Positions 17,466 to 39,770 are shown, counted from the first letter of the whole stretch. The stretch is DNA of 63,975 nucleotides, filler included, from Candidatus Woesearchaeota archaeon (GCA_023266675.1; 5 parts of 5 records of this genome joined end to end with filler, not necessarily neighbours in it); one strand, 5' to 3'. Numbers and translations: made by a program. The notes: generated by a model not told the origin, from the letters alone.

Positions 17466-18176
17466 ATGAATTCAAATAAATACAAAATAAAATTAACTAG
17501 AGTTTATAATAATTTTTTTAAAAAAATTGGGATAAATAAAAAAACAGGTCAAATTAATTCTAAAAAAAATAAAAAGTTTCCAGCTTACCCATTTATTGGT
17601 TCGAAGTATGGAAAGACTAAAAAAATACTAGTCATTGGACTTGATATAGGAAAAGACCCAAAAGAAGGAGGAGTACTAAGTCTAGAAGAACGAAGGGAGA
17701 TAATAGAAGATAAAAAAATCAATGAACATAAATCTCCTTATTTACCTGGTGTGTATATTTCTGCATTATATTTTCTTAAAAAGGAAAAAAAATGGAATAA
17801 AAATTGGAATAATGTTAAATTTATATCATTTCAAAAAGCGTTGAAAAAACCTGAATTGTTGCCCAAAGAGAATCCGTTATCCTTTATTGCCTTTACAAAT
17901 TTTTTTAAATTTGTCACAATATATAGAAAAAGAAAAAGTGGAAATAAAGATAGAACACATATTAACAAAAAAAAAGAAGAACAATTATTAATAGATGAAG
18001 TAAAAATACTAAATCCTGATATTATACTTTTTCATAGTAAAAGCTTCTCAAATAAAAAAGAAATAATTTCAAAACTTAAAAAATTTAAAAATAAAATTTT
18101 TATAGGTCCTCATCCTTCTTATCATGGAAAAAAAGAATCAAAATATTTTATAAATCAATATGAAAAATTAAAATAA
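17466..18176 (+). CDS. Uracil-DNA-glycosylase-fold protein, very AT-rich
   Basis: PFIGSKY...KILVIG, FTNFFK, EVKILNPDIILF and HPS motifs. Confidence 0.6.
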   Translation: MNSNKYKIKLTRVYNNFFKKIGINKKTGQINSKKNKKFPAYPFIGSKYGKTKKILVIGLDIGKDPKEGGVLSLEERREIIEDKKINEHKSPYLPGVYISALYFLKKEKKWNKNWNNVKFISFQKALKKPELLPKENPLSFIAFTNFFKFVTIYRKRKSGNKDRTHINKKKEEQLLIDEVKILNPDIILFHSKSFSNKKEIISKLKKFKNKIFIGPHPSYHGKKESKYFINQYEKLK

Positions 18177-18179
18177 GTC

Positions 18180-19268
18180 TTATAACTTGATTACCCACTT
18201 GCCGTTCTTTTGTACAAGCTTTCCGTCAAAGTATACTTCTCCGCCTTCCTTTCGAAAGTCCTTGACAATATCCCAGTGAAGCGCAGAGTAGTTTCCATTC
18301 TGCTTGTTCTTTTCTATGCACTCAGGGTATGCCATGCCTATTGCAAGGTGTATTGTTCCACCGATTTTTTCGTCAAACAAGAGATTCTTTGTAAAAACTG
18401 TAATCATTGGGTTCATTCCTATTCCAAATTCTCCCAGATATTTTGCGCCGTCGTCCATGTCAAGCATTGCTGTCAGGAATTTCTCGTTTTTTTCGGCTGT
18501 TGCTTTCACGATTTTTCCTTTGCTAAACTCAAGCCTTATCCCTTCAACTTCATTTCCTGCGCGAATAGCTGGGTAAGTGAATTTTATATGTCCTTGTGCT
18601 GAGAATTTTTCTGGTGCCGTGAATACTTCACCATCAGGAACGTTGTGAGTTGCGTATTCTGAGCGTGCAGTCATTCCATTAATGCTGAATGTTAAATCTG
18701 TTTCTTTTCCAACAATCCTTACTTTCTTTGTTTTATTGACAACTGCCTGGAGTGCATTTAGCCTTTTTATCATTTGTTTTGGGTCCTGATTTGTTGCACC
18801 GTACAAAAAGTCCTGGTATTCATCAAGTGACATTCCTGCATCCTGTGCAAGTGCCTGTGTTGGAAAATCAACTCCTACCCATCTTTTTGTAAGTCTTATT
18901 TTTGAAATTGGATCCATTGTTTTTGTTCTCAAAGCCATTTTTTTGTGGTCAAGATTAGTAAATTCCCTTGTGTTGTAATCTGCGCCTATTGAAATAAAAA
19001 CATCGGTCTCCCTTGCCTCTTCTTCAGTTAACTTTGGATAATACTTTAACTGGTGATCCTGTGCATACTTGTAATATAGATAATTTAATCCTGGAAGTAT
19101 TATTTTTACAGTTGGAAATGCACCCTGCTGCATACAAAGTTTGTAGATTTCTTTAATTAAAGGCTCTGCAAGTACATCGCTTGAAATAATCACTTTATCT
19201 CCTTTCTTGACTTTTGTAGAATGATAAACTAAAAGCTGTGCTAATTTTGTTATTCTTGAATCAACCAT
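18180..19268 (-). CDS. Aminopeptidase (M29, AmpS/AmpT family)
   Basis: NVPDGEVFTAP, GEFGIG, DEKIGGTIHLAIG, SALHWD. Confidence 0.95.
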   Translation of the reverse strand: MVDSRITKLAQLLVYHSTKVKKGDKVIISSDVLAEPLIKEIYKLCMQQGAFPTVKIILPGLNYLYYKYAQDHQLKYYPKLTEEEARETDVFISIGADYNTREFTNLDHKKMALRTKTMDPISKIRLTKRWVGVDFPTQALAQDAGMSLDEYQDFLYGATNQDPKQMIKRLNALQAVVNKTKKVRIVGKETDLTFSINGMTARSEYATHNVPDGEVFTAPEKFSAQGHIKFTYPAIRAGNEVEGIRLEFSKGKIVKATAEKNEKFLTAMLDMDDGAKYLGEFGIGMNPMITVFTKNLLFDEKIGGTIHLAIGMAYPECIEKNKQNGNYSALHWDIVKDFRKEGGEVYFDGKLVQKNGKWVIKL

Positions 19269-19412
19269 TAAATCACCTTTATTCTATTGTTTCTTAAACA
19301 AAATTGAAATCTGTTACTTTATAAATATATCCTTTAAAATCTTCAAAGCATAGTTTTAAATAGTTAATGAGCTTTACTAGATATATCTTATAGACGACAA
19401 GGAGGGTTTTAA

Positions 19413-20552
19413 TTGAAATCTGAAAAAGAACTTGATAATGTAATGTATTCTTACACATCAGAAAACAATGGACTTGAAGAAGAAAATAGAGTTCTTAGAG
19501 AAACAATTTCCCAATTAAAATCTGAACTTGACAGATTAAAAATTCCTCCGCTCATGGTTTGCGAAGTCCTTGAACTTATAGGTGAAAATGCAATAATAAA
19601 AGTTCCAAATGGAAACCAATTTTTTGTAAACGTTTCAACTGATATAAAAACACTTGAATCTGGAGACACAGTTCTTGTTGACCAAAAAAACCTTAATATT
19701 CTTAGAAAAATAGGAAAAGAAAGTTCATTTAACGTTGAAAAATTCGTTATAATCGAGAAACCAAAATTGAAATGGGAAGATATTGGAGGTCTAGAAGATC
19801 AGATAAATGAAATAAAAGAAGTTATTGAACTTCCTTTGAAAAATCCTGAATTATTCAAAAAAATAGGAATAACTCCGCCAAAAGGAGTATTATTATATGG
19901 TCCTCCTGGAACAGGAAAAACACTTTTAGCTAAAGCAGTTGCTTCATCAACAAATAGCACATTTATTGAGGTTGTAGGCTCTGAACTTGTGCAGAAATTC
20001 ATCGGAGAAGGGGCAAAACTTGTAAAAGAGATATTTGCGCTTGCAAAAAGAAAAGCTCCTGCAATAATATTTATTGACGAAATTGATGCACTAGCAGCAA
20101 GAAGGATAGAAATTGGAACATCTGGTGAACGAGAAGTTCAAAGAACGTTCATGCAATTCTTGGCTGAAATTGATGGATTCAAGAATCTTGGAAACATAAA
20201 AATAATAGGATGCACAAACCGTAAAGACATACTTGACCCTGCAATACTACGTTCTGGACGACTTGACAGACATATAAATGTTGAAGCTCCAAATATCGCT
20301 GGAGTAAAGCAAATATTCAAAATTCACACATCAAGAATGCACCTTGACAAGAAAATAAACACAGACAAGCTTTTCAAAGACATGGAAGGATTTTCAGGCG
20401 CAGAAATAAAAGCCACATGCACAGAAGCAGGATACTTTGCAATAAGGGAAAAAAGAACATCAATATCCGAAAAGGACTTCATTAATGCAGTAAAGAAAGT
20501 ACGTGAGAAGGAAGAGCAGGAAAGCACTGATCACATCAATATGTTCGGATAA
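19413..20552 (+). CDS. pan: Proteasome-activating nucleotidase
   Basis: N-terminal coiled coil and OB domain, GPPGTGKTL, FIDEIDA, GRLDR, HbYX-like MFG end; TTG start. Confidence 0.95.
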   Translation: MKSEKELDNVMYSYTSENNGLEEENRVLRETISQLKSELDRLKIPPLMVCEVLELIGENAIIKVPNGNQFFVNVSTDIKTLESGDTVLVDQKNLNILRKIGKESSFNVEKFVIIEKPKLKWEDIGGLEDQINEIKEVIELPLKNPELFKKIGITPPKGVLLYGPPGTGKTLLAKAVASSTNSTFIEVVGSELVQKFIGEGAKLVKEIFALAKRKAPAIIFIDEIDALAARRIEIGTSGEREVQRTFMQFLAEIDGFKNLGNIKIIGCTNRKDILDPAILRSGRLDRHINVEAPNIAGVKQIFKIHTSRMHLDKKINTDKLFKDMEGFSGAEIKATCTEAGYFAIREKRTSISEKDFINAVKKVREKEEQESTDHINMFG

Positions 20553-20577
20553 ACATATTTGCTGTTTTTTAATTTAA

Positions 20578-21024
20578 TTAATTCTTTGTTTTTACAATTA
20601 AATCAAACATTTCACTTTCAAGATAATATGCCCGCTGATTGTTCTCAAGCTGAATAAAAGAAAGCTGAATACCTTTTTTTATAATACTTTGAATCTGAGA
20701 TTTGATTGTATTATTTGACTTTGAAAGTTGTGATGCAAGATCTCCATAAGTGTATTTCTTGTTTTTTGAAACTGTAAAAATATGAAGTATTTCTTTTTCT
20801 GAGACTGTAAGATTTGACTTTGCATCCTCAACTTTCTTGATTAAATTGTTTTCTGATTTTCTTTCATTAAAAATTGATGCGTCAACAGGTTTTTGCTGTT
20901 CAATTAATTGAAGCCTTTTTTCAATATGAAGTATTTTTTCAGTTAATTCCTGATTTTCTTTTCTTATTTTTAGAAATGCCCGCCGTAAAAGTTCATCCCG
21001 GTTATTATCACTTTCAAACCCCAT
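20578..21024 (-). CDS. Coiled-coil plus winged-HTH DNA-binding protein
   Basis: LTVSEKEIL...TYGDLASQLSKSNNTIKSQIQSI HTH followed by a wing ending RAYYL. Confidence 0.75.
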   Translation of the reverse strand: MGFESDNNRDELLRRAFLKIRKENQELTEKILHIEKRLQLIEQQKPVDASIFNERKSENNLIKKVEDAKSNLTVSEKEILHIFTVSKNKKYTYGDLASQLSKSNNTIKSQIQSIIKKGIQLSFIQLENNQRAYYLESEMFDLIVKTKN

Positions 21025-21086
21025 AAGATTAGTTTGCCAACATTATATATAAATCTTATCAAAAATAAGAAAATAATTCATAATCG

Positions 21087-21183
21087 GTCGTTTAAACGAT
21101 GAAGTTAGTCGTTTAAACGGCATTTTTTGTCGTCTATAAATTCTTAGTCGGTCGTTTAAACGGCAGTTTAAACGATTAAACGG
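21087..21183. repeat. Phased palindromic GTCGTTTAAACG repeats (iteron-like array)
   Basis: Copies at 21087, 21108, 21129 (degenerate) and 21151, plus partial copies at 21166 and 21176. Confidence 0.85.
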
Positions 21184-21319
21184 CATAAAATTATGAATTA
21201 TAATAATTATGTAAAAAATCATTAAAATAACATGTTTAAAAACAGAATATTTTGGGGTATAATTGTATAAAAGATTATGTAATAAAAAGTAAAAGATTGA
21301 AAAAAATAAGAAAAAAAGT

Positions 21320-21380
21320 AGCTCAGCAGTTACTATCCGTTCATCATCCATATTCAGCTGGGGATAACTTCCTCATCGCT
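21320..21380 (-). ncRNA. Box C/D methylation guide sRNA 1
   Basis: Minus strand reads AGCG-ATGAGGA(C)-AGTTATCCCCAG-CTGA(D')-ATATGG-ATGATGA(C')-ACGGATAGTAACTG-CTGA(D)-GCT, with an AGC/GCT terminal stem and an oligo-T terminator. Confidence 0.85.
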
Positions 21381-21464
21381 TCAATCAGTATTAATTATAT
21401 AGAATATAAGTGTTTGTTTTTTAGTTATAAAAATAACAATTATGAATGGCAGTCTTGGAAGATT

Positions 21465-21540
21465 TGCACTCGCTCAGCAGTTACTTCCGTTTGTCACAGG
21501 CATGGCCTCGAATGGTGTTCACTTCTCTCATTGCAAGTCT
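21465..21540 (-). ncRNA. Box C/D methylation guide sRNA 2 (degenerate internal boxes)
   Basis: ATGAGAG (C), guide AAGTGAACACCAT, TCGA (D'), GTGACAA (C'-like), ACGGAAGTAACTG, CTGA (D). D guide nearly identical to sRNA 1. Confidence 0.65.
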
Positions 21541-21623
21541 TGCACTTCCTTAAATTAAGAATGATTTTTTAGTATATAAGCGTTTAGATATCAAAAGATA
21601 TTAATAGCTATAATATGAAAGAT

Positions 21624-22631
21624 TCAGATTATCTGAAAATCAACGCATATCCTGTATACTTTCGGAGCATGTTGTCCGCACTTTACAAGGGTTAGTATTT
21701 TATATTTCATATTATTTTTACTGCATGCTTTTTCTATCTTTTTATATGCCAAATCAAACTCTTTTTCGTTTAAGAAATCATAAAAATGAATTATTGTTCC
21801 TTTTTTTGATGCTGATAAAGCGGAATCTAAGAAATCCTCAGCAGATTTTGGAAGAGGCATGAGTATCCTGTCAAAATGTTTCTTTAACTTTGGAACTTCA
21901 ATTTTTACGTCCCCGTTTATTAAAGTGACATTTTTTATCTTATTCAATTTTATGTTTTCAAGCCCGTATTTATGCCCCTCTGGATTCATTTCTATACCTA
22001 TTATCGATTTTGCCTTCGTATTTTTTGACAAAACACATGGATAAGGCGCTGCTCCAGAGAACATCACAAGTATGTCCTCTTCGGATTTGACAAGTTCAGA
22101 TATTCTTTTTCTTTCAGTTGAAAGACGCGGTGAAAAATAAACTTTTTCAACATTAATTTTAAGCCGTACATTATTTTCTTTATGAATTGTTTCCTTCTTA
22201 TTTTCACCGGCAAGATAAATCATCTTTTGAGTTCGAAAATCACCTTCATGAACCCCTCCTTTCTTTAGAACAGTCTTTATGGTCTTGTTTGACTTTAGAA
22301 GTGCGTCGGCAATTAATTTTTCTTTTTTTTCAAGCTCCCTGTCAACTTCTATTATTGCTATGTCTCCTACATGATCATATGCTGTCTTTAAGGATTCTAT
22401 CTCTTCACTTGTAAGTTTTATTTTTAGAATATCAGCAAATGACTTTTTTTTCTCAGTCTTTTTGAATTTTTTTTCAAAAATACTGTATTCTGAGTCAAAC
22501 TTTTTCTTAATTGGAAGATATATGAACCCTTCTTCTTTTATAAGATCATAATCTGTGTCTAAATTATCTTTTTGCAAGAGCTCTCTTCTTGCTTTTTCAA
22601 CATCTTTCAAAGGAACTCTAAGTGCATGCAT
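21624..22631 (-). CDS. trm5: tRNA (guanine-37-N1)-methyltransferase, Trm5/Tyw2 family
   Basis: GDIAII, YFSPRLSTER, MFSGAAPY, RILMPLP. Confidence 0.85.
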   Translation of the reverse strand: MHALRVPLKDVEKARRELLQKDNLDTDYDLIKEEGFIYLPIKKKFDSEYSIFEKKFKKTEKKKSFADILKIKLTSEEIESLKTAYDHVGDIAIIEVDRELEKKEKLIADALLKSNKTIKTVLKKGGVHEGDFRTQKMIYLAGENKKETIHKENNVRLKINVEKVYFSPRLSTERKRISELVKSEEDILVMFSGAAPYPCVLSKNTKAKSIIGIEMNPEGHKYGLENIKLNKIKNVTLINGDVKIEVPKLKKHFDRILMPLPKSAEDFLDSALSASKKGTIIHFYDFLNEKEFDLAYKKIEKACSKNNMKYKILTLVKCGQHAPKVYRICVDFQII

Positions 22632-22716
22632 GTTTGTTAAAAGAAATTTTACCTTTATTTAAAGTTACCTTTAGAATATAATAAGATATGAAGAAGGAAT
22701 ATTAATTAAAAAAATG

Positions 22717-23751
22717 TCAAAAAAATTCCCCAAGACCTTTTTGTGCCTGCTTTTCAGTGCTTTTTTCAATTTTATCAAGTGCAGAATTCACTCGCTCTAG
22801 CGAAAAATCATGCTCATTTACAAGCATCTCTATAATTTTATCTCTTTGTACTTTGCCAAAAGAAATATTATAAACATCATTGACTTTTATATTCTTTATT
22901 GTACTGTATACTTCCTGCCATGAATAATCAAAATGCTCATCCCACTTTGCATCATTAAAAATTTCTTCTAGATTATTTTTATGCTTAGTTACAAGATCAT
23001 ATGCTTTTTTAGGACCAATTCCTTTTATACCTCCAATATTATAGTCTGTACCAACAAGCATCGCCAGTGCAATCAATTGATCCTGATTAAAATTAAGTTT
23101 TTCAAGATTTGTTTTAAGTGTAAATAATTCCGGCTGCACGGTTTCATACGCTAATTTTCCTGAAAGCTTTTTTTTACCTGTTATCGCCAAATTTTTTACT
23201 ACATAAGGTGCCCCAAAAATAAGCGAATCTGTATCTTGAGAAACAACTGCATAAGCCTGCCCTTTCTTGACAAGATACGCTGCCTGCGCTTCACCTTCTG
23301 ATGCTGCCTGAACTATCGGAAGCCCGAGATACTCTATAATTTTTTTTGCCTGTTCAACCATTTCCGGTGTAAGCATTGATGTACGTTTTGCAAACTTTTT
23401 CATGTCTTCAACATTTTCATCAAGAACCGCTTTTTCATATTCTTTTTGAGCTTCAATTTTCAGATTTTTTCTTCTTTCCCGTTCCTTATTTTTTAATTCC
23501 GGAACAATACCATCAAAAACAAATATCGGCTTTAAACCTTTTTCCATAAAATTTGTTGTACGAAAAAATAACCCTGTAATATGACTTGTGACTCTTCCTT
23601 TTGAATCCTTAAGCGGCGTTCCATCCTGCTGCCTTATTGTTGAAAGAAACTGATAAAGCATATTATATGTATCAATTGCAAGTATTTTTCCTGAAAGCTT
23701 CTCGACAGTTATTGATTCGGATGTCAATAAAGAAGTTATTGCCGTTCCCAT
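22717..23751 (-). CDS. fen: Flap endonuclease 1
   Basis: AIDTYNMLYQFLSTIR, EGEAQAA, SQDTDSL, GTDYN, PIP box QKGLGEFF. Confidence 0.97.
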   Translation of the reverse strand: MGTAITSLLTSESITVEKLSGKILAIDTYNMLYQFLSTIRQQDGTPLKDSKGRVTSHITGLFFRTTNFMEKGLKPIFVFDGIVPELKNKERERRKNLKIEAQKEYEKAVLDENVEDMKKFAKRTSMLTPEMVEQAKKIIEYLGLPIVQAASEGEAQAAYLVKKGQAYAVVSQDTDSLIFGAPYVVKNLAITGKKKLSGKLAYETVQPELFTLKTNLEKLNFNQDQLIALAMLVGTDYNIGGIKGIGPKKAYDLVTKHKNNLEEIFNDAKWDEHFDYSWQEVYSTIKNIKVNDVYNISFGKVQRDKIIEMLVNEHDFSLERVNSALDKIEKSTEKQAQKGLGEFF

Positions 23752-23753
23752 TT

Positions 23754-24659
23754 TTACCTGAAAAAATCAAGTATTTTTTTAAAAAGCCATTTCTTTGGTT
23801 TTTCTTTAATGTTGTTTTTAGACTTATTTTTTCTGGCCTTCATTTCTTTTTTCTTGATTTTATGAATTTTAGGTTTTTCTTTTATTTTATGTTCTTGTTG
23901 TCTCTTTTTTTCTGATACTTTTTGAGGTTTATGATCTTTTTGAACTTTGATTTTACTAATTATATCTACTTTCTCCTTAGCTTCCTCATCTTCAAATGCC
24001 TCAATTTCCTGTTCATTATATGTTTCTAGAATTATTTTTTTTGTATCATCTTTTTGATTGTATATTTCTATATTATCATTTGATATAATTAATTCTTCTT
24101 CTGCTTTTTCTTTTTTCTTTAGTGTTTTTTCTTCATTAATATTTTCTTCAACAAATAACTCTTTTCTTTCAGTATCCTCTTGCTTTTCCTCATCATCTAT
24201 TGGTATTGTTAAAATTATTTCTTTTACCATATCTTCGGCTTCAGAAAGCGAAGTCATGTACCATTTCCAGAATATTTCATCCTGTCCATGGACTGAAACT
24301 ACAAGAGGTATTGAGAAATCCTTTATTACTCTTAATGAAAGCCTAACATGAGTTGGGACATCATAATCCCTCAATATTTTTTTCTCTTTTAAAAGATTAA
24401 ATGAGTACCTGTCATTTTCATTAAGATATTTTTCAAGTGTCTGAAGCCTTTCTTCCTGACCTTCACAGAAGTATGCCGGAGAGCCTCCAACCTTTGTATT
24501 TGAAACAAATATTTTTCCTGAATCCTTTAACTGCATTAAAACTGCTCCAACGATAAACGTATCACCACCAACTTCCTTAACAACTTCTCTTGGTATAACT
24601 GGACCGTTTTTTTGGATTATCTCTAGAATTCTTGGTCTTAAATCAATCTTTGTATCCAT
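23754..24659 (-). CDS. Hypothetical protein with N-terminal wHTH-like domain and charged tail
   Basis: ILEIIQKNGPVIP...VGGSPAYF; acidic then lysine-rich C-terminus; stop 2 nt before the fen start. Confidence 0.75.
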   Translation of the reverse strand: MDTKIDLRPRILEIIQKNGPVIPREVVKEVGGDTFIVGAVLMQLKDSGKIFVSNTKVGGSPAYFCEGQEERLQTLEKYLNENDRYSFNLLKEKKILRDYDVPTHVRLSLRVIKDFSIPLVVSVHGQDEIFWKWYMTSLSEAEDMVKEIILTIPIDDEEKQEDTERKELFVEENINEEKTLKKKEKAEEELIISNDNIEIYNQKDDTKKIILETYNEQEIEAFEDEEAKEKVDIISKIKVQKDHKPQKVSEKKRQQEHKIKEKPKIHKIKKKEMKARKNKSKNNIKEKPKKWLFKKILDFFR

Positions 24660-24711
24660 TACTACTCTTAAATAAATTCAAATATTTAAAGTTTTGTAAA
24701 GAAAGAGTGAA

Positions 24712-25323
24712 TTATGGTCTGGTCCACTTAATTTCGTAGTAAGTTACGTCTCCTTCTGAGTCTGCAATACCAATTAGAAGCCTTTTCTTAGTTGAGTGAG
24801 CAACCCTGTTTTTTGCCGCAAAATCGTACCAAGTCATTGCATCTGTTTCATTTACCGGGTAGAGTACCCATTTTGCATGGTCTTCACCAGGCTTAACTCC
24901 TCGGTCATATACTCTAAAATCAGCGCCGAATTTCAATGCAGTCTTAACTATATATCCTCGTTCTCGCATATCCTTAAAAACTTTGTATCGTGTAAAAAAG
25001 TTTTTTTCCTTTTTCTGGGCTTTTTTTAGAAATTCTTCAAGCGTAACTATCTTTTTTCCTGAATAAATCTTGATCTTTTCTTTTTCAAGTAGGTATAATG
25101 ATTCTATGAATGAAAGCTCAACTTTTTTTTGATGAATACCGCCAAATCTGCTTAATGCATATAGCTCTCTGGCTGGGTCTGAGTCTTCAGTCAATACCGT
25201 ATCATCATGAAGATGCGCTTTGACAAACGTTTTTTCTTTAGATTCTTTCTTTGGCTCTTTGATAATCTCAGATAATTTTACAGTTTCAATTGTTTGGACT
25301 TCTTTAGCTTTATCTTTTACCAT
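24712..25323 (-). CDS. endA: tRNA-splicing endonuclease
   Basis: ESLYL, GYIVKTALKFGADFRVY, HAKW, RVAHSTKK (catalytic Y/H/K). Confidence 0.95.
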   Translation of the reverse strand: MVKDKAKEVQTIETVKLSEIIKEPKKESKEKTFVKAHLHDDTVLTEDSDPARELYALSRFGGIHQKKVELSFIESLYLLEKEKIKIYSGKKIVTLEEFLKKAQKKEKNFFTRYKVFKDMRERGYIVKTALKFGADFRVYDRGVKPGEDHAKWVLYPVNETDAMTWYDFAAKNRVAHSTKKRLLIGIADSEGDVTYYEIKWTRP

Positions 25324-30952: not shown

Positions 30953-31067
30953 GTAATTCTTGTGGAGATTTTCTTACAACTCTCCCTTTTTCAATTTCTT
31001 TATTTAGCTTTGCAACAGAGGCGCCAGGTCTTTCTCCATCTTCATGTTTTCTACCAAAATGTCCCAT
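30953..31067 (-). CDS. 5' fragment of a hypothetical gene cut by the gap
   Basis: GGAG Shine-Dalgarno and TTTATAAA box upstream; MGHFGRKHEDGERPG... open to the gap. Confidence 0.45.
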
Positions 31068-31119
31068 CTCCTTTAGAAAACAAATTTATTTATAAATGTT
31101 ACTACTAATTAGTCTATAA

Positions 31120-32520
31120 TTAAATCTTCTTCCACTTTGTGCCGTCTTTAGAATCTTCAAGAACTATTCCCTTATGTTTCAATTCATTTCTTATTTTATC
31201 AGCTTTTGCAAAGTCTTTTTGTTTCTTAGCATTATCCCTCTCTTTGATTAGTGCTTCAATTTCACCATTAACTTCTGCAATTTCTTCTTTCATATTTTTA
31301 AATCCAAGACCAAGAACTCTATCAAAATCAAGAAGTATTGAATACTTGTCTTTGTTTGAGATTTTTTCATCCTTTAAAACATGATACATCAACGCAAGTA
31401 CTTTTGGCATGTTCAAGTCGTCATTAATCAGTTCCTTGAATTCTTCAGTGTATCTGTGGTCAAGCCTCTTATGAATTTCTCCGTCATCGTCTTTCTTTAT
31501 TTCTATTACCTTATTCTTCAAAGCATTAAAAGAGTTCCTTGAAGATTCAAGGCCATCAAAACTGAATTTCAGTTGCTGTTTGTAATGCGCAGTCAGGCAA
31601 AAATACCGATAAACTATCGGGTCAAATCCTTTGTCAACAAGTGTTTGAAGCTTTAAGAAGTTGTCACCGCTTTTTGCCATTTTATCCTTATCAATCACCA
31701 AGAATTCACCATGCAGCCAGTATTTCACCCACGGATGCTTGTTAAACGCAGCTTCACTTTGCGCGATCTCATTTGTGTGGTGAACCTGAATATGATCAAT
31801 TCCCCCTGTGTGGATATCAAACTGCTCTCCTAAATACTTTGAAGACATTGCTGAGCATTCTATATGCCAGCCAGGGTATCCTTTGCCAAAAGGCGAGTCC
31901 CATTTCATTTCCTGCTCGTCAAACTTTGATTTTGTAAACCACAAAACAAAATCATTAGGGTTTCTTTTATTTTTGTCAGCGTCAACTCTTGATTTTTTTT
32001 CAGAGTCATCATTTTCAAGTCTTGCAAGACGTCCGTAATCTTTGAATTTTGAAGTGTCAAAATAAATATTTCCGCCAGCGGAATAAGCATAGCCGTTTTT
32101 CTCAATCTTTCTTATTATCTCAATCATTTCTTTAATGTGGTCGGTTGCTTTTGGTATAATTTCAGGCGTCTCAATATTCAATTTTTCCAAGTCAACCATG
32201 AACGCTTTTGTGTAAAACTCAGCTAACTCATAAACAGTTTTTTTCTCACGCTTTGCGCCTTTAAGCATCTTGTCTTCACCTGAATCAGCGTCGGAAGTCA
32301 AATGCCCAACATCAGTTATATTCATAACGTGCTTTAAATTGTAACCATTATACTTTAGCGTTCTTCGTAGAACGTCATTAAAAACATAAGTCCTAAGATT
32401 TCCAATATGAGCATAGTTATACACTGTAGGACCGCACGAGTAAAGTCCAACTTCACCATCTTTTATCGGCTTAAAAACTTCTTTTTTACGAGCGAGAGTA
32501 TTATACAATTTTAAAGTCAT
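31120..32520 (-). CDS. cysS: Cysteinyl-tRNA synthetase
   Basis: CGPTVY, HIGN, PGWHIECSAMS, KMAKS. Confidence 0.97.
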   Translation of the reverse strand: MTLKLYNTLARKKEVFKPIKDGEVGLYSCGPTVYNYAHIGNLRTYVFNDVLRRTLKYNGYNLKHVMNITDVGHLTSDADSGEDKMLKGAKREKKTVYELAEFYTKAFMVDLEKLNIETPEIIPKATDHIKEMIEIIRKIEKNGYAYSAGGNIYFDTSKFKDYGRLARLENDDSEKKSRVDADKNKRNPNDFVLWFTKSKFDEQEMKWDSPFGKGYPGWHIECSAMSSKYLGEQFDIHTGGIDHIQVHHTNEIAQSEAAFNKHPWVKYWLHGEFLVIDKDKMAKSGDNFLKLQTLVDKGFDPIVYRYFCLTAHYKQQLKFSFDGLESSRNSFNALKNKVIEIKKDDDGEIHKRLDHRYTEEFKELINDDLNMPKVLALMYHVLKDEKISNKDKYSILLDFDRVLGLGFKNMKEEIAEVNGEIEALIKERDNAKKQKDFAKADKIRNELKHKGIVLEDSKDGTKWKKI

Positions 32521-32668
32521 AACCTTAATTAGAACACGGTATTATTTAAAATTATAGGAAATAATCACTACTTATCTCTTTTTATTAAGTATCTCTATTT
32601 TTGTTTGGTAAACTATTCTTATAACTATTTAGATATATTTAAAAACGCAAACTATCATTTATTATTTA

Positions 32669-32929
32669 ATGTCACTAGATGAAAACGTTGACGCTTTAAT
32701 ACAGACTAATCTTAGAACAACGTTTCTTAATCAATCTTTAATTTCTCTTATACCTGGAGTCTATGCACATTACAGCATAAACAGCACATTAAATAACTCG
32801 GAGCTTACAGAACAGCAGAAGGTTTTTGAGATAGTTGTATCACACATACCAAAAGAAATAGCATTGAATGTAGCACGCGTCGGAGCTGTTTATGCATTAT
32901 ACAACTTTTATCAGTTCCTGCAGCATTAA
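32669..32929 (+). CDS. Small hypothetical protein
   Basis: 86-aa ORF with TTTAAAAA box upstream. Confidence 0.5.
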   Translation: MSLDENVDALIQTNLRTTFLNQSLISLIPGVYAHYSINSTLNNSELTEQQKVFEIVVSHIPKEIALNVARVGAVYALYNFYQFLQH

Positions 32930-33135
32930 TTATTCAAATCTCATTTATCATACATATCTTTAAAAATAATCACTCATTACTTGAAGTTATGGCTTTCAAG
33001 AAAAGGCAGCATAGCTGAAAATATTTTAATTCTTCTGATTAGTTATAACTTTTAAAACAATATTTAAAATAAAATTAATGTTAAAAATATACTGTTAAAA
33101 TAACCTATTTACAAATAATTAAACGGTGATTAAAT

Positions 33136-34146
33136 ATGCAAAATAAAAATGAAAAAAAACTTTATTATAACTTAAAAAAATCAGTTGATTTGTCACGCCT
33201 TCCAAAAATAGAAGGATACAATTTTGAGAAAAATGATTTTGAAAAAATCTTGGAGTCATTTAATACAACTGGTCTACAGGCAGGCGAGCTTGGTCGCGCA
33301 ATTGAAATAACAAAAACAATGATTAGGGAAAAAGTTCCGCTGTTTCTTTCATACACATCAAACATGGTATCATCAGGCGTTAGGGAGCACATATGTTACC
33401 TTGTTAAAAATAATAAAGTAAATGTTCTTGTGACTGCTGCAGGAGGAATCGAGGAGGATGTCATCAAGGCAAGGATGCCTTTTAGTGTTGGAGATTTCAA
33501 TGCAAAAGGAGAAACTCTTTTTGACTCCGGCGTATCACGAATAGGAAATATCTTCACAACAAACGAACATTACACTTATTTTGAGTTCTTCATGAGAAAA
33601 GTTTTTGACAAATTGATGGAAGAAAAGACAAAAGACGGCTACTGCATTGTCTCGCCTAGTGAGATAGCAGAGATGATGGGTAGATTGATTGAAAGCGAGG
33701 AAGAGTATGATTTTAACTCATCAATAGTCTACAATGCGTATAAAAATAAGATTCCAATATTTTGTCCAGGAATTGTTGACGGCGCAATTGGGGACATGCT
33801 TTATTTTTACAAAAAAAACCATTCAAACTTTGTGCTTGACACTGCACGTGACCATGAAAGAATAATTGATTACACTTTGCAGCAGGAAAAGACTGGTGCG
33901 ATAATACTTGGAGGCGGAATATCGAAGCACTATGTTTTAAATGCAAACATATTCAAGGAAGGGCTTGACTATGCAGTATACATCTCAACTGCGCAGGGGT
34001 TTGACGGCTCAGACAGCGGCGGAAATGTGGATGAAGCAATATCTTGGGCAAAAGTTAAACCAACTGCAATGCATGCAAAAGTTTATTGTGAGGCATCCAT
34101 TGCTTTTCCACTTTTAGTTGCTGCAAGCTTTGCCAAGAAAAACTAA
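33136..34146 (+). CDS. dys: Deoxyhypusine synthase
   Basis: SYTSNMVSSG, TAAGGIEED, LGGGISKH, DGSDSG, EAISWAK. Confidence 0.95.
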   Translation: MQNKNEKKLYYNLKKSVDLSRLPKIEGYNFEKNDFEKILESFNTTGLQAGELGRAIEITKTMIREKVPLFLSYTSNMVSSGVREHICYLVKNNKVNVLVTAAGGIEEDVIKARMPFSVGDFNAKGETLFDSGVSRIGNIFTTNEHYTYFEFFMRKVFDKLMEEKTKDGYCIVSPSEIAEMMGRLIESEEEYDFNSSIVYNAYKNKIPIFCPGIVDGAIGDMLYFYKKNHSNFVLDTARDHERIIDYTLQQEKTGAIILGGGISKHYVLNANIFKEGLDYAVYISTAQGFDGSDSGGNVDEAISWAKVKPTAMHAKVYCEASIAFPLLVAASFAKKN

Positions 34147-34156
34147 TTTTTTTTAT

Positions 34157-34834
34157 CTATCTTTTTTTGCAGATAAACAAACAGTGATCTTTCTCGTAAG
34201 GGTCAAGCTCTTTGTAGTCAACTATCGTAATGACTTTTTCAAGTTCTTCACGCACTTTCCTAAAGACATCTTTTGGCTTTTTTGTAACGTCTATACTTCT
34301 TGATTTTACAAAATAAAGTCCAAATCCTCCGCTTTTCAGATACATGTCAACATTTTTTAAGAATATTTCTGTCTGGTTTTTTTGAGCAATATCCATATAG
34401 ATGACATCAGCTTGTGTTACAAGATGTGTGTATGTCAAAGGCTTATTTGCGTTTGCAAGTATTGGTGCAATATTTTTTCTTTTTTCAGCTAAAAAGACAA
34501 GGTCTTTAACCATACGAGGCGCAAAGTCTAGAGCAAAAACAAATCCTTTTTCGCCTACAATATCAGATATGTGGGATGGTGTTGTCCCTGATGAAGCGCC
34601 AAGATAAAGCACTATTTCGCCTTCTCTAATCCCTATCTGTGAAACTCCTTTCTGGATTGCAGCTGCAAGTTTACTTCGCTTATGGTTCCACTCCCTATAC
34701 TCGTCATTTCCAATTTTGACAATTTCCTCATCATAAACAACATTTCCTTTGTAGAGATTCTTAGTAAAAAAAGTCTTCTTACCTTTCCTGTCTTCAAAAT
34801 AAATATTTGGAAACTTATAATTATACGGTTGCAT
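34157..34834 (-). CDS. flpA: Fibrillarin-like rRNA 2'-O-methyltransferase
   Basis: YREWNHKRSKLAAAI, LYLGASSGTTPSHISD, RSIDVT, LDPYEKDH; start refined to MQPYN. Confidence 0.96.
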   Translation of the reverse strand: MQPYNYKFPNIYFEDRKGKKTFFTKNLYKGNVVYDEEIVKIGNDEYREWNHKRSKLAAAIQKGVSQIGIREGEIVLYLGASSGTTPSHISDIVGEKGFVFALDFAPRMVKDLVFLAEKRKNIAPILANANKPLTYTHLVTQADVIYMDIAQKNQTEIFLKNVDMYLKSGGFGLYFVKSRSIDVTKKPKDVFRKVREELEKVITIVDYKELDPYEKDHCLFICKKR

Positions 34835-34934
34835 ACACTTTAGAATAAAGTTTTTGTATTTAAAATCTTCGTATAATAATCTGTACACATTATATATGGC
34901 AAAATATTTAAACAAAATATCCCAAAATAAGGAT

Positions 34935-35822
34935 ATGAAATCAAAAAAAGGGTTTTTAGTATCACAGATGTTTATTTATGCATTTGGAATTATCGTTGCT
35001 ATACTGATTCTATACTCAGGGTATAAGGCAATATTTACTTTTTCTTCATCAGCAGAAACGTCAACGTTTACTACACTTCAGGCAAAGTTATCAAGCGATT
35101 TGGAGAGTCTGGCTTTGCATAAAGGGGAGGTAAAAACATTCTCTTACTCTATTCCTTACGGATATAATCAGGTATGTGCGTTTGATTTAATTAATGATTC
35201 CAATCTACAGGCTTCAATATTTGAGTTTTTTCCGTTTCTTAGGCAAAGCATAGAAGAAAAATCCGAGAACATATTTTTCATCAATAATAACAAGGTTTTC
35301 GGAATTAGAGTACCTGCGTTAAAAATCAAAGGATACCCATATTATGCATGTGTAAATCTAAAAGGCAATGAGCTGACTTTTAACGCCAAAGGAGATGTAT
35401 ATAATGGCGAGCGTGTAGCAATGCTTCTTACAAGCAATAAGGTTGAAGTTGATTTATCACTACCATATTTACACGATTCATGCACTAACCTTAACTCACA
35501 GTGTCATAAATTAAAGTCAAACCTTGAAATTATTTCTTCAGATGGACTTGCAAAAATGATTATACTCAAAGATACGGAAGTAACACTTCCAGTAGGAAAT
35601 AAAAGTTTATACATTAAAATAAATGGTGCAGGCAGAGGGAGTAATGAGTACGATTGGGGACCAGCAGGAACTAAATTTACAAATAATTTAATCAAGTTAG
35701 GCATTAAGAAAAGTGATTGTGAATCTAATGTTCCTTTCAAACTTAAAGATAAAGATGAAAATTATATATCTACTGTTACATGTGAAGAAGGATTTGCTAT
35801 CTGGACTTTTTCAGAAATCTAA
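34935..35822 (+). CDS. Pilin-like protein with class III signal peptide
   Basis: MKSKKG|FLVSQMFIYAFGIIVAILIL followed by a Cys-containing globular domain. Confidence 0.7.
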   Translation: MKSKKGFLVSQMFIYAFGIIVAILILYSGYKAIFTFSSSAETSTFTTLQAKLSSDLESLALHKGEVKTFSYSIPYGYNQVCAFDLINDSNLQASIFEFFPFLRQSIEEKSENIFFINNNKVFGIRVPALKIKGYPYYACVNLKGNELTFNAKGDVYNGERVAMLLTSNKVEVDLSLPYLHDSCTNLNSQCHKLKSNLEIISSDGLAKMIILKDTEVTLPVGNKSLYIKINGAGRGSNEYDWGPAGTKFTNNLIKLGIKKSDCESNVPFKLKDKDENYISTVTCEEGFAIWTFSEI

Positions 35823-36769
35823 CTAAACTTCTTTTCCAAATCCTTTCTTAGTTTGTCACCAATGAATTCTCCCTTAAAGAAATCAACTTTTATCGCGATA
35901 GAAATCTTGTCAGCAAGAGCTTTTGCAACTTTTCCTTTATCCTGCCTTTTGGCTTTCATAACAAGCGGATGCTGCAAAAGTATTCCATACTTAGGAGACC
36001 TTGCGCCAGTCTTGATATGCCTAAACAATGCTTCTTCAGCGCCAAGCAACTGGATTGTTGACGCAGGCATAAACGCCATTTTCTCAACGCTTCCGGCCTT
36101 TGCAATCATCTTTGCGCCGATATTAGTTCCAGTAATCTCATGAAAATTATGGCATATATTTTTCATAACGCCTTCCATATAATCCTCTGTTTTGCGTCTT
36201 TCAGCATAAAGTCCTTCAACAGCCTTTGCTAGCGAAAGAATCTTTTCAACATCATTATCCCTAAGGTCTTTTCCCATGGATACATCAACCTTCAATTCAT
36301 GCAGAAGTTTATTTTTGTCTTTTTCCAATATCACTTTAACGAATGTTTCATTGTCAGATATCAGTTCTGACGCTTCAGGAAGATACAGCGAATACCATTC
36401 GCGAAGTCTTTTACACAGTCCATTTGCAATTTTATCAATGTCTTCAGTTGTTTTAACGGCCTGGATAATCAGCAAATCATCCTTAACTGACTCTGAAACA
36501 AGCTTTTTTGTGTTAAATAAATTCACCGAATAAAACTCTTTAGCGTCTTTTCTAAAGTTTTCAAGAATCCTGTTGATTATATTTGCGCTGTCAGTCTTTT
36601 TTATATGCGGATGCTTTTTAATCAAACTCTTCTCAGACTCAAGCTCTTCTCCTTTTGAGAGCAGGTAAGCGTTTTTCACAGCTTCCTCTTTACTAAACAG
36701 CACTTTCTCCTTTATATGAAAATGCTCATCTATCACAAAGCTTCCGATTGCGTTTGAAAAAAGGTACAT
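35819..36769 (-). CDS. nop5: Nop5 (Nop56/58) box C/D RNP protein
   Basis: RLREWYSLYLPE, PASTIQLLGAEEALFRH, PKYG; start refined to MYLFSN. Confidence 0.93.
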   Translation of the reverse strand: MYLFSNAIGSFVIDEHFHIKEKVLFSKEEAVKNAYLLSKGEELESEKSLIKKHPHIKKTDSANIINRILENFRKDAKEFYSVNLFNTKKLVSESVKDDLLIIQAVKTTEDIDKIANGLCKRLREWYSLYLPEASELISDNETFVKVILEKDKNKLLHELKVDVSMGKDLRDNDVEKILSLAKAVEGLYAERRKTEDYMEGVMKNICHNFHEITGTNIGAKMIAKAGSVEKMAFMPASTIQLLGAEEALFRHIKTGARSPKYGILLQHPLVMKAKRQDKGKVAKALADKISIAIKVDFFKGEFIGDKLRKDLEKKFS

Positions 36770-36856
36770 AAAACTCAATAATATCAGTTCATATTTAAAT
36801 TTAATTGATGAACTGCAACCGTCTGATTTCATTTCAACAAAATCTTTATAAACAAC

Positions 36857-36888
36857 TATCAGTTTCTGATATATCACTTAGTGATATA
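36857..36888. promoter_or_regulatory. Two tandem TATCAS-N3-STGATA palindromes, likely PadR operators
   Basis: TATCAG-TTT-CTGATA and TATATCAC-TTA-GTGATATA just downstream of the TTTATAAA box at 36845. Confidence 0.65.
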
Positions 36889-36924
36889 GTTATATTTAAG
36901 AGTTATATTCAATGGGAGAAAAAG

Positions 36925-37443
36925 ATGATATTCAAGTCACATATGAAGCTTAGCGTGCTTAAAAATCTGAAAAATAAAGATCAGACAGGATACGACCTGA
37001 TAACTTCAATCGGCGAGTTTGGAGGCAAAAAACCTTCAGCAGGCTACATTTATCCACTCTTAAAGGAGCTTGAAGAGAAAAATTTCCTGACTTTAAAAAG
37101 CGAAGGAAGAAGAAAAATTTATCTTATAACTCCAAAAGGAAAGACACTTTTGGAGAATATGCAGAAAAACCATGATGAGATGCTAAATAATATGATTAGC
37201 ACAATTGGGCCTATCGCTGAAAAGGGAGAAATGGAGAAATATGTCGCATTTCAGTCAAGGCTTCAAAAATACAAAAACCAGATGCTTAGGGACATTGACA
37301 TTTTAGATGGATTCCACAAGGCGATGTATAAAATTTATGATAAAAATGATCCTTCATCAAGAAAGAAACTGAGGGATACAATAAAAGAATCTACAAAAAA
37401 ACTTGAAAGAATCTCAGGTAAAAACAATAAGGTGAAAAAATGA
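36925..37443 (+). CDS. PadR-family transcriptional regulator
   Basis: GYDLI...PSAGYIYPLLKELEE...RRKIYLITPKG. Confidence 0.92.
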   Translation: MIFKSHMKLSVLKNLKNKDQTGYDLITSIGEFGGKKPSAGYIYPLLKELEEKNFLTLKSEGRRKIYLITPKGKTLLENMQKNHDEMLNNMISTIGPIAEKGEMEKYVAFQSRLQKYKNQMLRDIDILDGFHKAMYKIYDKNDPSSRKKLRDTIKESTKKLERISGKNNKVKK

Positions 37444-38372
37444 ATAAAAAAATAATTATTTTAATAACAACACTTTTGATGACATTCTCATCAGTCTTCG
37501 CGTCTATCAATCAGACTGATATGTCCGGAAATTCAAACGTTGGCGTGAATAAAGATGCAGCGTTTATCATAACAACATTAAAATATGAACCTTACCCTGT
37601 TAATGCAGGCGATTGGTTTGATGTATGGATTCAAGTTCAAAATATAGGACAGAATGACGCTTTAAACTCAAAATTTGAGATAGTGCCAGAATACCCTTTC
37701 TCAACAAACGAAAATAGCAGTCAGTCATTTAATACAATAAGCGGCACGATAAACGCCAACAAAAATTTAAAATCAGGAGAACAGAATCCTCAGGAAAATA
37801 TTGTTGTATTGAAATATAGGGTAAAGGTTGCAGACAATGCAAAAGAAGGGGAGAATAACTTAAAATTCAAGGCAACTATAAGTGGAGTTAATGTTCATTC
37901 CTATGATATGCCTATCTATATAGATAAAACCAAAACAGATTTTAAAATCGTTATGCGCGACGTAAATTCTAGAAGAACAACATTCTCAATAGCGAATATC
38001 GGTGAAAAACAGGCCAGTGCAATAACAATCCAGGTCAAAGATGACAGCATACTTTTGGATAAAACAAATGCAGAACTTATACTAGGAACATTGAATATCG
38101 GTGAATTCTCAACAATGTCTTTTCCAATAATACCAAATGAAACTATAAAGGAAATAACATTTGATATAGGATATACAGATGTAAGCGGAGTTAGAACAAA
38201 CATTGAAAAAACGGTTCCGGTAAAAATATTAAAAGAAGATGAAACTGCGGATTTATCAAAATCAAACCTTAGTTTGACTTTTTATGAAAGATATTCAAAA
38301 GAACTATACGGGGTTTTCGGATTAATTGCAGGGTTGTTAATCATGACATTGATAAATAAGCGAAAAAAATAA
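37440..38372 (+). CDS. Exported COG1361-type (S-layer-domain-like) protein with C-terminal anchor
   Basis: Signal peptide, KYEPYPVNAGDWFDVWIQVQNIG, SIANIG, C-terminal TM helix plus basic tail. Confidence 0.75.
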   Translation: MNKKIIILITTLLMTFSSVFASINQTDMSGNSNVGVNKDAAFIITTLKYEPYPVNAGDWFDVWIQVQNIGQNDALNSKFEIVPEYPFSTNENSSQSFNTISGTINANKNLKSGEQNPQENIVVLKYRVKVADNAKEGENNLKFKATISGVNVHSYDMPIYIDKTKTDFKIVMRDVNSRRTTFSIANIGEKQASAITIQVKDDSILLDKTNAELILGTLNIGEFSTMSFPIIPNETIKEITFDIGYTDVSGVRTNIEKTVPVKILKEDETADLSKSNLSLTFYERYSKELYGVFGLIAGLLIMTLINKRKK

Positions 38373-38389
38373 TTTAAGAGCTGATTTTA

Positions 38390-39025
38390 ATGAAAGAAAA
38401 AAATAAAGAAGAAACCAAACGAAAAAAACCAGTCTTGTTTATAATATTGCTTTTAGTGTTTATCATCGGAGGAATTGCAGGATATGACTATTGGAATATA
38501 CTTCAAACAAGAGTATACACTGAAAAAGCAGTAATTAATGCACCAATAATAACACTGTCTCCATTAAATAGCGGTACGCTTGACCGAGTCATGGTAAAAG
38601 AAGGAGACTCAGTAAGAACAGATATGATACTTGCAACAATTAACGGAGTTTCGCTTAAATCAAAAACCGAAGGAGAAATAATCTCTGTTCAAAATATCCC
38701 AGGACAATTTGTAAACACCCAAACACCGCTCATTAAGATGATTAATCCAAAAGAGTTTCGAGTTATTGGGACAATCGATGAAAATAAAGGATTTAATGAT
38801 ATAAAACTAGGACAAAAAGTTGAGTTTATAGTTGATGCATTTGAACCAAAAAAATATTATGGAACTGTTGACAGCATATCACCATCATCAAGACAGCAGG
38901 ATATTATCTTTAGCATATCAGACAAGCGGGCAGTAAACCAATTTGATGTAAAAGTATCTTATGATATCAATAAATACCCGGAACTTAAAAATGGGATGTC
39001 TGCAAAGATATGGATCTATAAATAA
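38390..39025 (+). CDS. HlyD/EmrA-like membrane fusion (adaptor) protein, short form
   Basis: N-terminal TM, GTLDRVMVKEGDSV lipoyl half, GQKVEFIVDAF, LKNGMSA. Confidence 0.85.
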   Translation: MKEKNKEETKRKKPVLFIILLLVFIIGGIAGYDYWNILQTRVYTEKAVINAPIITLSPLNSGTLDRVMVKEGDSVRTDMILATINGVSLKSKTEGEIISVQNIPGQFVNTQTPLIKMINPKEFRVIGTIDENKGFNDIKLGQKVEFIVDAFEPKKYYGTVDSISPSSRQQDIIFSISDKRAVNQFDVKVSYDINKYPELKNGMSAKIWIYK

Positions 39026-39053
39026 CCTTTTTGTTTTAAAATAATTTTTTAAT

Positions 39054-39770
39054 ATGGGCTTATCAAAAAACGTCTCTAAACTTAAAAATGAAGAGTTTTC
39101 TAAAGATAAAAATGCTGAAATAATAAAAAAAGACAACACCAGATGGTGGATACTTGCAACAGTAATGATAGGTACATTTCTTGGAGGATTAAACCAATCT
39201 GTTTCAAATCTTGCACTTCCAAAAATAATTGACCAATTTGGAATAACAGTCTCACAGGCAGCATGGATATCAACAGCATACATCATCGCAAATGCTGTGC
39301 TTGTTCCGGTATGGGGAAAACTCGGAGATACAATAGGACGTAAAAAAGTTTACCTTACAGGATTTATAATCTTTATTTTTGGCTCAATTCTTGTCGGCTT
39401 TTCATGGAATCTTACTTCAATGTTAATCTTCCGGGTTATACAAGGAATCGCAGTATCAGCGGATTATCCAACGGCAATGGCAATAATAGCAGTCACATTC
39501 ACCGATGGACGCGAGCGGGCCAAAGCTTTAGGAATATGGTCAGCGTCATTTGCAGTTTCATCAGTACTTGGACCGTTACTTGGAGGTCCAATAATCGATA
39601 ATTTTGGATGGAATGCAGTTTTTTTTATGATGCTTCCAATAGGGCTAATTGGAATGTTTATGGCAATAACATTCGTCAAGGAATCAGTTTCAGAAAAAAA
39701 GAATGTAGCCTTTGATTTTTATGGCGCAATAACACTTGGAGTATCACTTTCAAGCCTAGTGCTTGTCCTT
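39054..39770 (+). CDS. DHA2-family MFS efflux pump (EmrB/QacA), cut by gap
   Basis: NLALPKI, WISTAY, GKLGDTIGRKK, GPLLGG. Confidence 0.92.

Follow-up and report, generated by a model that had tools for sequence, protein, structure and literature searches.

A conserved box C/D sRNA gene of a Woesearchaeota archaeon, predicted to guide methylation of 23S G2446 in the peptidyl-transferase centre

Introduction

Does a short stretch of AT-rich intergenic DNA in the genome of a Candidatus Woesearchaeota archaeon encode a box C/D guide RNA, and which nucleotides of the ribosome would such an RNA select? A sequence-only reading of the locus had proposed a minus-strand box C/D sRNA that targets G2446 of 23S rRNA. 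Here we follow up this proposal and refer to the flagged gene as sRNA-B.

The window denotes the whole stretch of DNA that was analysed (63,975 nucleotides). It consists of five contigs (C26, C27, C28, C29 and C48) joined by N runs and 12-nt linkers. Because the window is a concatenation, features in window 30853-63975 are not physically linked to sRNA-B. The genome assembly comprises 1.22 Mb in 83 contigs and is 95.9% complete by markers. The DNA runs carrying the sequence are labelled groundwater metagenome. The DPANN affiliation that had been proposed for the organism agrees with the closest Trm5 loci, which come from 'Candidatus Woesearchaeota' MAGs.

Results

Anatomy and surroundings of sRNA-B

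The minus-strand order of boxes C, D', C' and D, the terminal stem and the oligo-T tract were all recovered where they had been proposed to lie. The elements are as follows, in the direction of transcription.

21403..21410, minus strand: TATA-like motif ~27 nt upstream of the sRNA-B 5' end, putative promoter element
21320..21380, minus strand: sRNA-B, box C/D sRNA, 61 nt from stem base to stem base
21380-21378, minus strand: 5' strand of the terminal stem, AGC, followed by a G at 21377
21370..21376, minus strand: box C, AUGAGGA, from reading the sequence and from the four-box scan
21358..21369, minus strand: D' guide, 12 nt, AGUUAUCCCCAG, with position 5 at 21362, opposite G2446
21354..21357, minus strand: box D', CUGA, invariant in the 17-sequence alignment described below
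21353-21348, minus strand: D'/C' loop, AUAUGG, 6 nt
21341..21347, minus strand: box C', AUGAUGA, canonical
21327..21340, minus strand: D guide, 14 nt, ACGGAUAGUAACUG
21323..21326, minus strand: box D, CUGA, invariant in the same alignment
21322-21320, minus strand: 3' strand of the terminal stem, GCU, followed by AC and then by the T-run; the stem has 3 bp
21311..21317, minus strand: run of seven T 3' of sRNA-B, likely an archaeal terminator

Box C departs from RUGAUGA only by a G for U at position 5, which leaves 6 of 7 nucleotides and the G-A core in place. The D' spacer is 12 nt long and the D spacer 14 nt, compared with 12-13 nt in most homologues (14-15 also occur). The complement that had been assigned to the D' guide proved correct, the reverse complement of this guide being CUGGGGAUAACU.

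Two protein genes flank the sRNA genes.

19413-20552, plus strand: proteasome-type AAA ATPase, on one side
21624-22631, minus strand: Trm5/TYW2-type tRNA methyltransferase, on the other side

Upstream of Trm5, window 22717-25323 encodes on the minus strand a FEN1/XPG-type nuclease, a 301-aa ORF without a Pfam match and a tRNA-splicing endonuclease. Trm5, the sRNAs, the nuclease and the splicing endonuclease form an RNA-processing neighbourhood. A repeat cluster (21075-21186) sits between sRNA-B and a 148-aa ORF of no known family. A 19-24-nt repeat with a palindromic GTTTAAAC at its core occurs there three to five times, and on the plus strand the cluster contains a hairpin of 14 pairs with a T-run behind it (21087-21121).

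sRNA-B stands out in scans of the genome

When 701 bases were scanned with Rfam by E-value, ~20 C/D families, archaeal and eukaryotic, matched exactly 21320/21-21380 on the minus strand. The top family was snoPyro_CD (RF00095; 29.2 bits, E 5e-4 on the 701 bases), and sR1 reached 24.8 bits. When snoPyro_CD was run over the 1.22-Mb genome, sRNA-B was returned with an E-value of 2.2e-4, compared with 1.27 (14.8 bits) for the runner-up. sRNA-B lies below every Rfam gathering threshold, the closest being that of RF00095 (29.2 vs 45 bits), and a gathering-threshold scan of the window returned tRNA only. Such a miss is expected for a distant lineage, because Rfam's archaeal C/D models derive from sequences of Pyrococcus and Sulfolobus.

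A strict four-box regular expression matched 10 sites in the genome and 1 in the reversed genome; sRNA-B was the only match with canonical boxes throughout. The minimum-free-energy fold of sRNA-B is no better than that of shuffled sequences (z = 0.36), which is expected, since the structure of C/D RNAs depends on protein.

Other scans were less selective. A loose single-guide scan, which combined a C-like box, a D-like box and a 9-mer rRNA match, gave 352 matches and was judged uninformative, because the control matches listed resemble the real ones. A more stringent four-box scan, in which the stem had to reach >=4 bp, produced 8 matches, vs 2 in the control. It recovered a neighbouring gene, sRNA-A (see below), which the generic snoPyro_CD model misses; the other matches have AU-rich guides and look like chance. 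The generic model, the four-box scan and the stem scan found no further convincing C/D sRNA in the genome, bearing in mind that genes with boxes as degenerate as those of sRNA-A would escape them.

Homologues of sRNA-B recur across the order

Of 401 genomes of the order, 25 contain the pattern 'UGANGA, 1-4 nt, UUAUCCCC, 2 nt, CUGA', G000 among them; the reversed control pattern had no match among those listed for the same 401 genomes. Apart from the match in G075, each of the 25 is followed by identifiable C' and D boxes and closed by a complementary terminal stem. When 17 compact copies were aligned, the guide core proved invariant, and so did the boxes, apart from box C of sRNA-B; the 16 other homologues all have UGAUGA at this site. 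Terminal stem cells are paired in 82.4% of cases across the 17 sequences, vs 57.0% in shuffles, and 0 of 500 shuffles came as high. The covariation score of the stem is 0.689, compared with at most 0.17 for slid partners.

This alignment served to build a covariance model (R1), which at E <= 0.01 matched 47 of the 151 genomes sampled from the order, a tally in which the genomes that gave training sequences match by construction. On our own window, the model scores 57.8 bits at 21318-21381. The best 30 model matches were classed by eye. The same guide core is found in 24 of them, with C or U at one position (the U forms a G-U pair with G2447). The remainder are two one-change variants, three matches with a U2552 guide and one that is different. 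Six Trm5 loci from other MAGs contain no match to the sRNA model, and the placement beside the proteasome-ATPase gene is common to G002 alone.

Some homologues depart from the compact form. In L024 (G002), L029 (G027) and L039 (G298), a D'-C' insertion of 46-81 nt contains a hairpin, and the guide halves lie far apart; the G002 copy is located at L024 1414-1528 on the minus strand. In L040 (G397), the sRNA-B homologue is followed ~110 nt downstream by another C/D-like unit, whose D guide is related and whose box D reads CCGA; this suggests that tandem sRNA arrays exist elsewhere in the order.

The D' guide is predicted to select G2446

Rfam LSU and SSU models found no 16S or 23S gene in the 83 contigs. 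As the bin is without assembled rRNA, the target was tested on the rRNA of relatives. The panel contains the 23S of 14 relatives and the 16S of 11 relatives plus one partial sequence; three genomes (G001, G002 and G003) belong to the same family and the others to the same order. For numbering, the three family 23S sequences were aligned with an annotated E. coli 23S record (2,903 nt). The landmarks of this record sit one below the standard numbering, and the four-G run was therefore placed at 2444-2447.

In 13 of the 14 relatives, the 23S reads CCGGGGAUAACA, and guide positions 3-11 form 9 contiguous Watson-Crick pairs with 2444-2452. Position 1 also pairs (with C2442) in these 13 relatives, and positions 2 (A-C) and 12 (A-A) are mismatched. 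G016 has a wobble variant of the target, CUGGGGAUAAUA, which gives 11 contiguous pairs with one G-U. For the organism's own 23S, we would predict the core complement ...GGGGAUAAC... at 2444-2452. The alignment with E. coli 23S places G2446 across from guide position 5, counted upstream from D', as the sequence-only reading had claimed. The longer match it had claimed, 2442-2452, holds for 2444-2452 and for C2442 but fails for the 'CU' at 2442-2443. E. coli and 13 of the 14 relatives have CC at these positions and an A at 2453, so that the match amounts to 9 contiguous pairs plus C2442, not 11 or 12.

One 12-mer would find a 9-nt match in ~4.4 kb of rRNA with an estimated chance of ~0.07. Since a lone match of this length is not rare by chance, the weight of the argument lies on conservation. 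Guide position 2 is a G in most lineages and pairs with C2443, while position 1 varies freely. Five genomes combine an sRNA-B homologue with their own 23S, and in all five the D' guide matches the 23S best at the G2446 site, with runs of 10, 8, 11, 11 and 10 for G002, G019, G025, G027 and G028, respectively. The best 16S matches in four of these five genomes fall at four unrelated positions. Among 21 tRNAs identified by ARAGORN, none offers >=8 contiguous pairs to any of the four guides tested (best run <=7). G2446 lies in the central loop of domain V, at the peptidyl-transferase centre. The D' guide would most likely direct methylation of a universally conserved G in the catalytic centre of the ribosome.

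Two peculiarities of the relatives' rRNA may be recorded here. The 23S genes of G001 (L017), G018 and G028 measure 3,070-3,219 nt, vs ~2,910 nt in relatives; in G001, insertions of ~45 and ~37 nt are located within domain V, near the peptidyl-transferase loop. The long insertions could be introns or expansion segments. The 16S 3' ends of all 12 relatives (G001, G002, G003 [partial], G005, G007, G012, G016, G018, G019, G020, G027 and G028) read GTCGTCACAAGG. The usual sequence at this universal primer site presumably has an A in place of the second C; if this is correct, a common reverse primer would mismatch the order.

The D guide is predicted to select the neighbouring U2438

Taken as a whole 14-mer, the D guide gave no consistent match to rRNA. 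The D guides of homologues are 12-13 nt long, and 15 of the 26 inspected share the 3' end of the sRNA-B guide and aim at the U2438 stretch. In the 23S of relatives, AAAAGUUACUCC is directly followed by GGGGAUAACA, and the D guides complement the stretch immediately 5' of the D' target. In the common form of the guide, positions 2-10 pair and U2438 stands opposite position 5. In sRNA-B, positions 2-8 pair with 2435-2441 of the relatives' 23S, with position 5 again opposite U2438. Its 2 extra nucleotides break the duplex after 7 pairs, and 3 more pairs are possible past a 2-nt bulge. Extra D-guide nucleotides are also seen in G111 (14 nt) and G040 (15 nt). Because the two guides of sRNA-B address abutting 23S segments, they could hardly be bound simultaneously and would act in turn. 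The aim of the D guide at the neighbouring U2438 is a new prediction of this work.

A tandem paralogue, sRNA-A, and its probable circular RNA

Two related sRNA genes stand here in tandem, with sRNA-B downstream. The upstream gene, sRNA-A, consists of the following elements.

21572..21580, minus strand: TATA-like motif, the same as that of sRNA-B, putative promoter of sRNA-A
21471..21546, minus strand: sRNA-A, tandem paralogue 90 nt upstream of sRNA-B, with degenerate boxes
21531-21525, minus strand: box C, AUGAGAG
21511-21508, minus strand: box D', UCGA
21497-21491, minus strand: box C', GUGACAA
21477-21474, minus strand: box D

sRNA-A and sRNA-B have in common a 14-nt repeat, which covers the end of the D guide, box D and the stem. 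The orthologues of sRNA-A in G002 and G003 are fully canonical, and in G002 the two genes also stand in tandem. Positions 3-11 of the sRNA-A D' guide pair with the 23S A-loop, with position 5 opposite U2552, and its D guide is of the U2438 type, as in sRNA-B. The tandem arrangement, with an upstream copy predicted to target U2552, is likewise new here. A search for FtsJ/RrmJ, the protein-only route to Um2552, gave only weak generic methyltransferase matches (best 33 bits).

Among the runs listed as containing the DNA, none is registered as RNA. One metatranscriptome, from the sample that probably yielded the DNA, was compared with window 18000-25000. It contains RNA of sRNA-A as a single 106-nt contig (depth 64.5) on 21455-21546, whose alignment has 3 mismatches and leaves 5 leading and 9 trailing letters unaligned. 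All of these numbers are reproduced if 21471-21546 is simulated as a 76-nt circle and written out in 106 letters (circle length + 30). The 3 'mismatches' arise because the wrap-around is aligned onto a similar flank. The assembler behind the contig, we assume, uses 31-letter words. The junction of the circle is ambiguous within a 7-nt repeat. This is good evidence that sRNA-A is an abundant circular, or at least permuted, RNA. The same metatranscriptome has no contig on 21320-21380 or on any gene of 18000-25000. A library of this kind would be expected to lose a linear 61-nt RNA, so this blank does not count against expression of sRNA-B. RtcB is encoded in the genome, and the RNA_ligase domain has one weak match (33.6 bits) in a 603-aa frame.

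Protein partners

The core proteins of C/D RNPs are encoded in the genome.

34163..34816, minus strand: fibrillarin (Pfam match region), 280.5 bits, contig C27
35825..36448, minus strand: Nop5 (Pfam Nop domain match region), 180.6 bits, contig C27

Fibrillarin and Nop5 are adjacent on C27 (window 30953-39770), and L7Ae is found on C12. Fibrillarin and Nop5 are thus both present in the window, as had been noted from the sequence, but on a contig other than that of sRNA-B and without linkage to it.

Alternative explanations

Could short motifs have come together by chance in this AT-rich intergenic DNA, or does the layout belong to a protein-coding gene? It is overlapped by two ORFs, 21043-21351 on the minus strand (102 aa) and 21252-21572 on the plus strand (106 aa), and no RNA contig covers the sRNA-B copy. 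However, neither ORF has a Pfam match, and the 102-aa translation is of low complexity. The 25 pattern matches as opposed to 0 for the reversed control among those listed, the covarying terminal stem of the homologues and the genome-wide E-value of 2.2e-4 make this reading very unlikely, and we give it almost no credence. A different question is whether the D' guide truly acts on 23S. The sequence-only reading had itself named the 5' domain of 16S as an alternative target, and an exact 12-nt complement is indeed present near position 120 of the G005 16S; moreover, the organism's own 16S is absent from the assembly. The two family relatives that have this part of the 16S nevertheless fail to bear the alternative out, pairing over only 8 (G001) and 7 (G002) contiguous nucleotides with mismatches beside the would-be target nucleotide. 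G005 is without a copy of the sRNA by pattern or model (its genome is 79% complete), and the guide variants across the order follow the 23S: position 2 is a G opposite C2443, and position 12 in G002 is a U opposite A2453. We consider a 16S target quite improbable.

It is also conceivable that sRNA-B is a decaying or partly disabled copy, little expressed and perhaps with a dead D guide, while, after the tandem duplication, sRNA-A and perhaps other factors carry the load. Its box C variant is unique among the 17 aligned homologues, its D guide contains the 2-nt insertion, and guide position 2 forms an A-C mismatch with the family 23S. Within the family, G003 has sRNA-A only, no copy was found in G001, and sRNA-B of G002 carries a D'-C' insertion of ~59 nt. 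On the other hand, the kink-turn G-A dinucleotides are kept in all four boxes, the 9-nt guide core is intact, and the terminal stem, the TATA-like motif and the T-run are present. G002 keeps the same A at position 2, which indicates that this mismatch has been tolerated over family-level time, and the recurrence of longer D spacers in G040 (15 nt) and G111 (14 nt) suggests a tolerated variant. Decay of sRNA-B thus appears unlikely, and we favour the reading of an intact guide gene directed at 23S.

Discussion

Overall, sRNA-B is probably a genuine archaeal box C/D guide RNA gene, whose D' guide would direct methylation of G2446 and whose D guide would direct methylation of U2438. By analogy with characterised C/D RNPs, the transcribed RNA would form a kink-turn from boxes C and D and a kink-loop from C' and D'. 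L7Ae, together with a Nop5 dimer and two fibrillarins, would bind these. With each guide paired to nascent 23S, fibrillarin would add a 2'-O-methyl group to whichever nucleotide faces the fifth position upstream of D' or D. The D' guide would select G2446, the site of yeast Gm2815/snR38. The D guide would select U2438, its pairing weakened here to 7 contiguous pairs by the 2-nt insertion.

A broader proposal is more tentative, and we regard it as possible but rather doubtful. In this cold, mesophilic groundwater organism, the lineage may possess a minimal kit for RNA-guided rRNA methylation: a duplicated pair of C/D sRNAs in tandem, one or both circular, that serve only the peptidyl-transferase centre (U2438, G2446 and U2552). 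The pair would then come close to an ancestral core set of guide RNAs common to Archaea and Eukarya.

With these homologues, an uncultivated mesophilic DPANN order joins the carriers of a G2446 guide, alongside Methanococcus, Methanopyrus, Ignicoccus, Nanoarchaeum and the eukaryotic snR38. This would place the guide among the most widely conserved methylation guides known. G2446 and U2552 are both methylated in yeast, and G2446 is also methylated in human, Arabidopsis and Dictyostelium, according to the site table of PMC8817022. For annotation, the family is a checkable one that standard pipelines miss, yet it is present in 47 of 151 sampled genomes. The tandem pair with its shared guide illustrates cleanly how duplication shuffles guides. 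The circle of sRNA-A, if confirmed, would extend C/D sRNA circularisation beyond the thermophile cases considered here.

A full-text literature search, with subscription journals outside its scope, returned no C/D sRNAs described for Woesearchaeota or, N. equitans aside, for DPANN. The G2446 guide itself is already in print for four other archaea (PMC4644070). Among the sRNAs given by Dennis et al. 2015 (PMC4644070), the same guide core stands beside D' or D in Methanococcus maripaludis (Mma) sR101, Nanoarchaeum equitans (Neq) sR03 and Ignicoccus hospitalis (Iho) sR414, with the same core and register as in sRNA-B, and T. tenax sR140 has it shifted by one. The target given there for Mma sR101, Methanopyrus kandleri (Mka) sR7 and Iho sR414 is '23S G2720' in alignment numbering. 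U2712 is given for N. equitans sR14, and U2826, which equals E. coli U2552, for N. equitans sR10 and four others (PMC4644070). From the guide sequences and the 8-nt offset, we infer that G2720 corresponds to G2446 and U2712 to U2438.

In several respects, sRNA-B differs from these published copies. The partner guide differs per species among the copies in that source, whereas that of sRNA-B is predicted to address the adjacent U2438 (PMC4644070). In N. equitans, itself a DPANN archaeon, the three targets are distributed over three sRNAs according to the same collection, while here they fall on a tandem pair that shares one guide (PMC4644070). The copies in that collection are verified by RNA-seq (PMC4644070), whereas sRNA-B is predicted from sequence.

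sRNA-B resembles the Pyrococcus model RF00095 and the Sulfolobus and Pyrococcus sR families in its length of ~60 nt, its boxes, the 12-nt length of its D' spacer and the short terminal stem. The host genome is AT-rich and that of a mesophile, and very few C/D sRNAs were found in it, whereas hyperthermophiles have dozens to over a hundred, as far as the account in PMC7994747 goes. Circular C/D sRNAs are described in N. equitans (PMC3491384), and circular C/D box sRNAs are reported for N. equitans, Pyrococcus and Thermococcus kodakarensis across two sources (PMC3491384, PMC9014305). The sRNA-A contig is exactly what a 76-nt circle would give and in this resembles the circles of those reports (PMC3491384, PMC9014305). 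Unlike the circles in PMC3491384, it concerns the neighbour sRNA-A and comes from one metatranscriptome contig instead of inverse RT-PCR.

The closest eukaryotic counterpart is snR38/SNORD1/snoR38 (RF00213). The alignment with the snoR38 guide suggests that yeast G2815 corresponds to E. coli G2446. Like the eukaryotic guide, the D' guide of sRNA-B is complementary to this part of the rRNA and would select the same G. The eukaryotic RNAs are longer, with degenerate C' and D' boxes, and in the Rfam consensus their guide has a U opposite the A that replaces G2444 in eukaryotic rRNA. The equivalence with Gm2815/snR38 that had been suggested for the locus is supported by the snoR38 consensus guide, which aligns in the same register relative to D', and by the site table of PMC8817022, where yeast Gm2815 is listed as the equivalent of human Gm4362, Arabidopsis Gm2805 and Dictyostelium Gm3148. 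Against RF00213, sRNA-B scores 19.7 bits vs a gathering threshold of 45 (E 0.38 on 111 bases) and is not a member by Rfam's criterion. We therefore file it as an archaeal C/D sRNA rather than as a member of RF00213; it is predicted to work like snR38 and Mma sR101.
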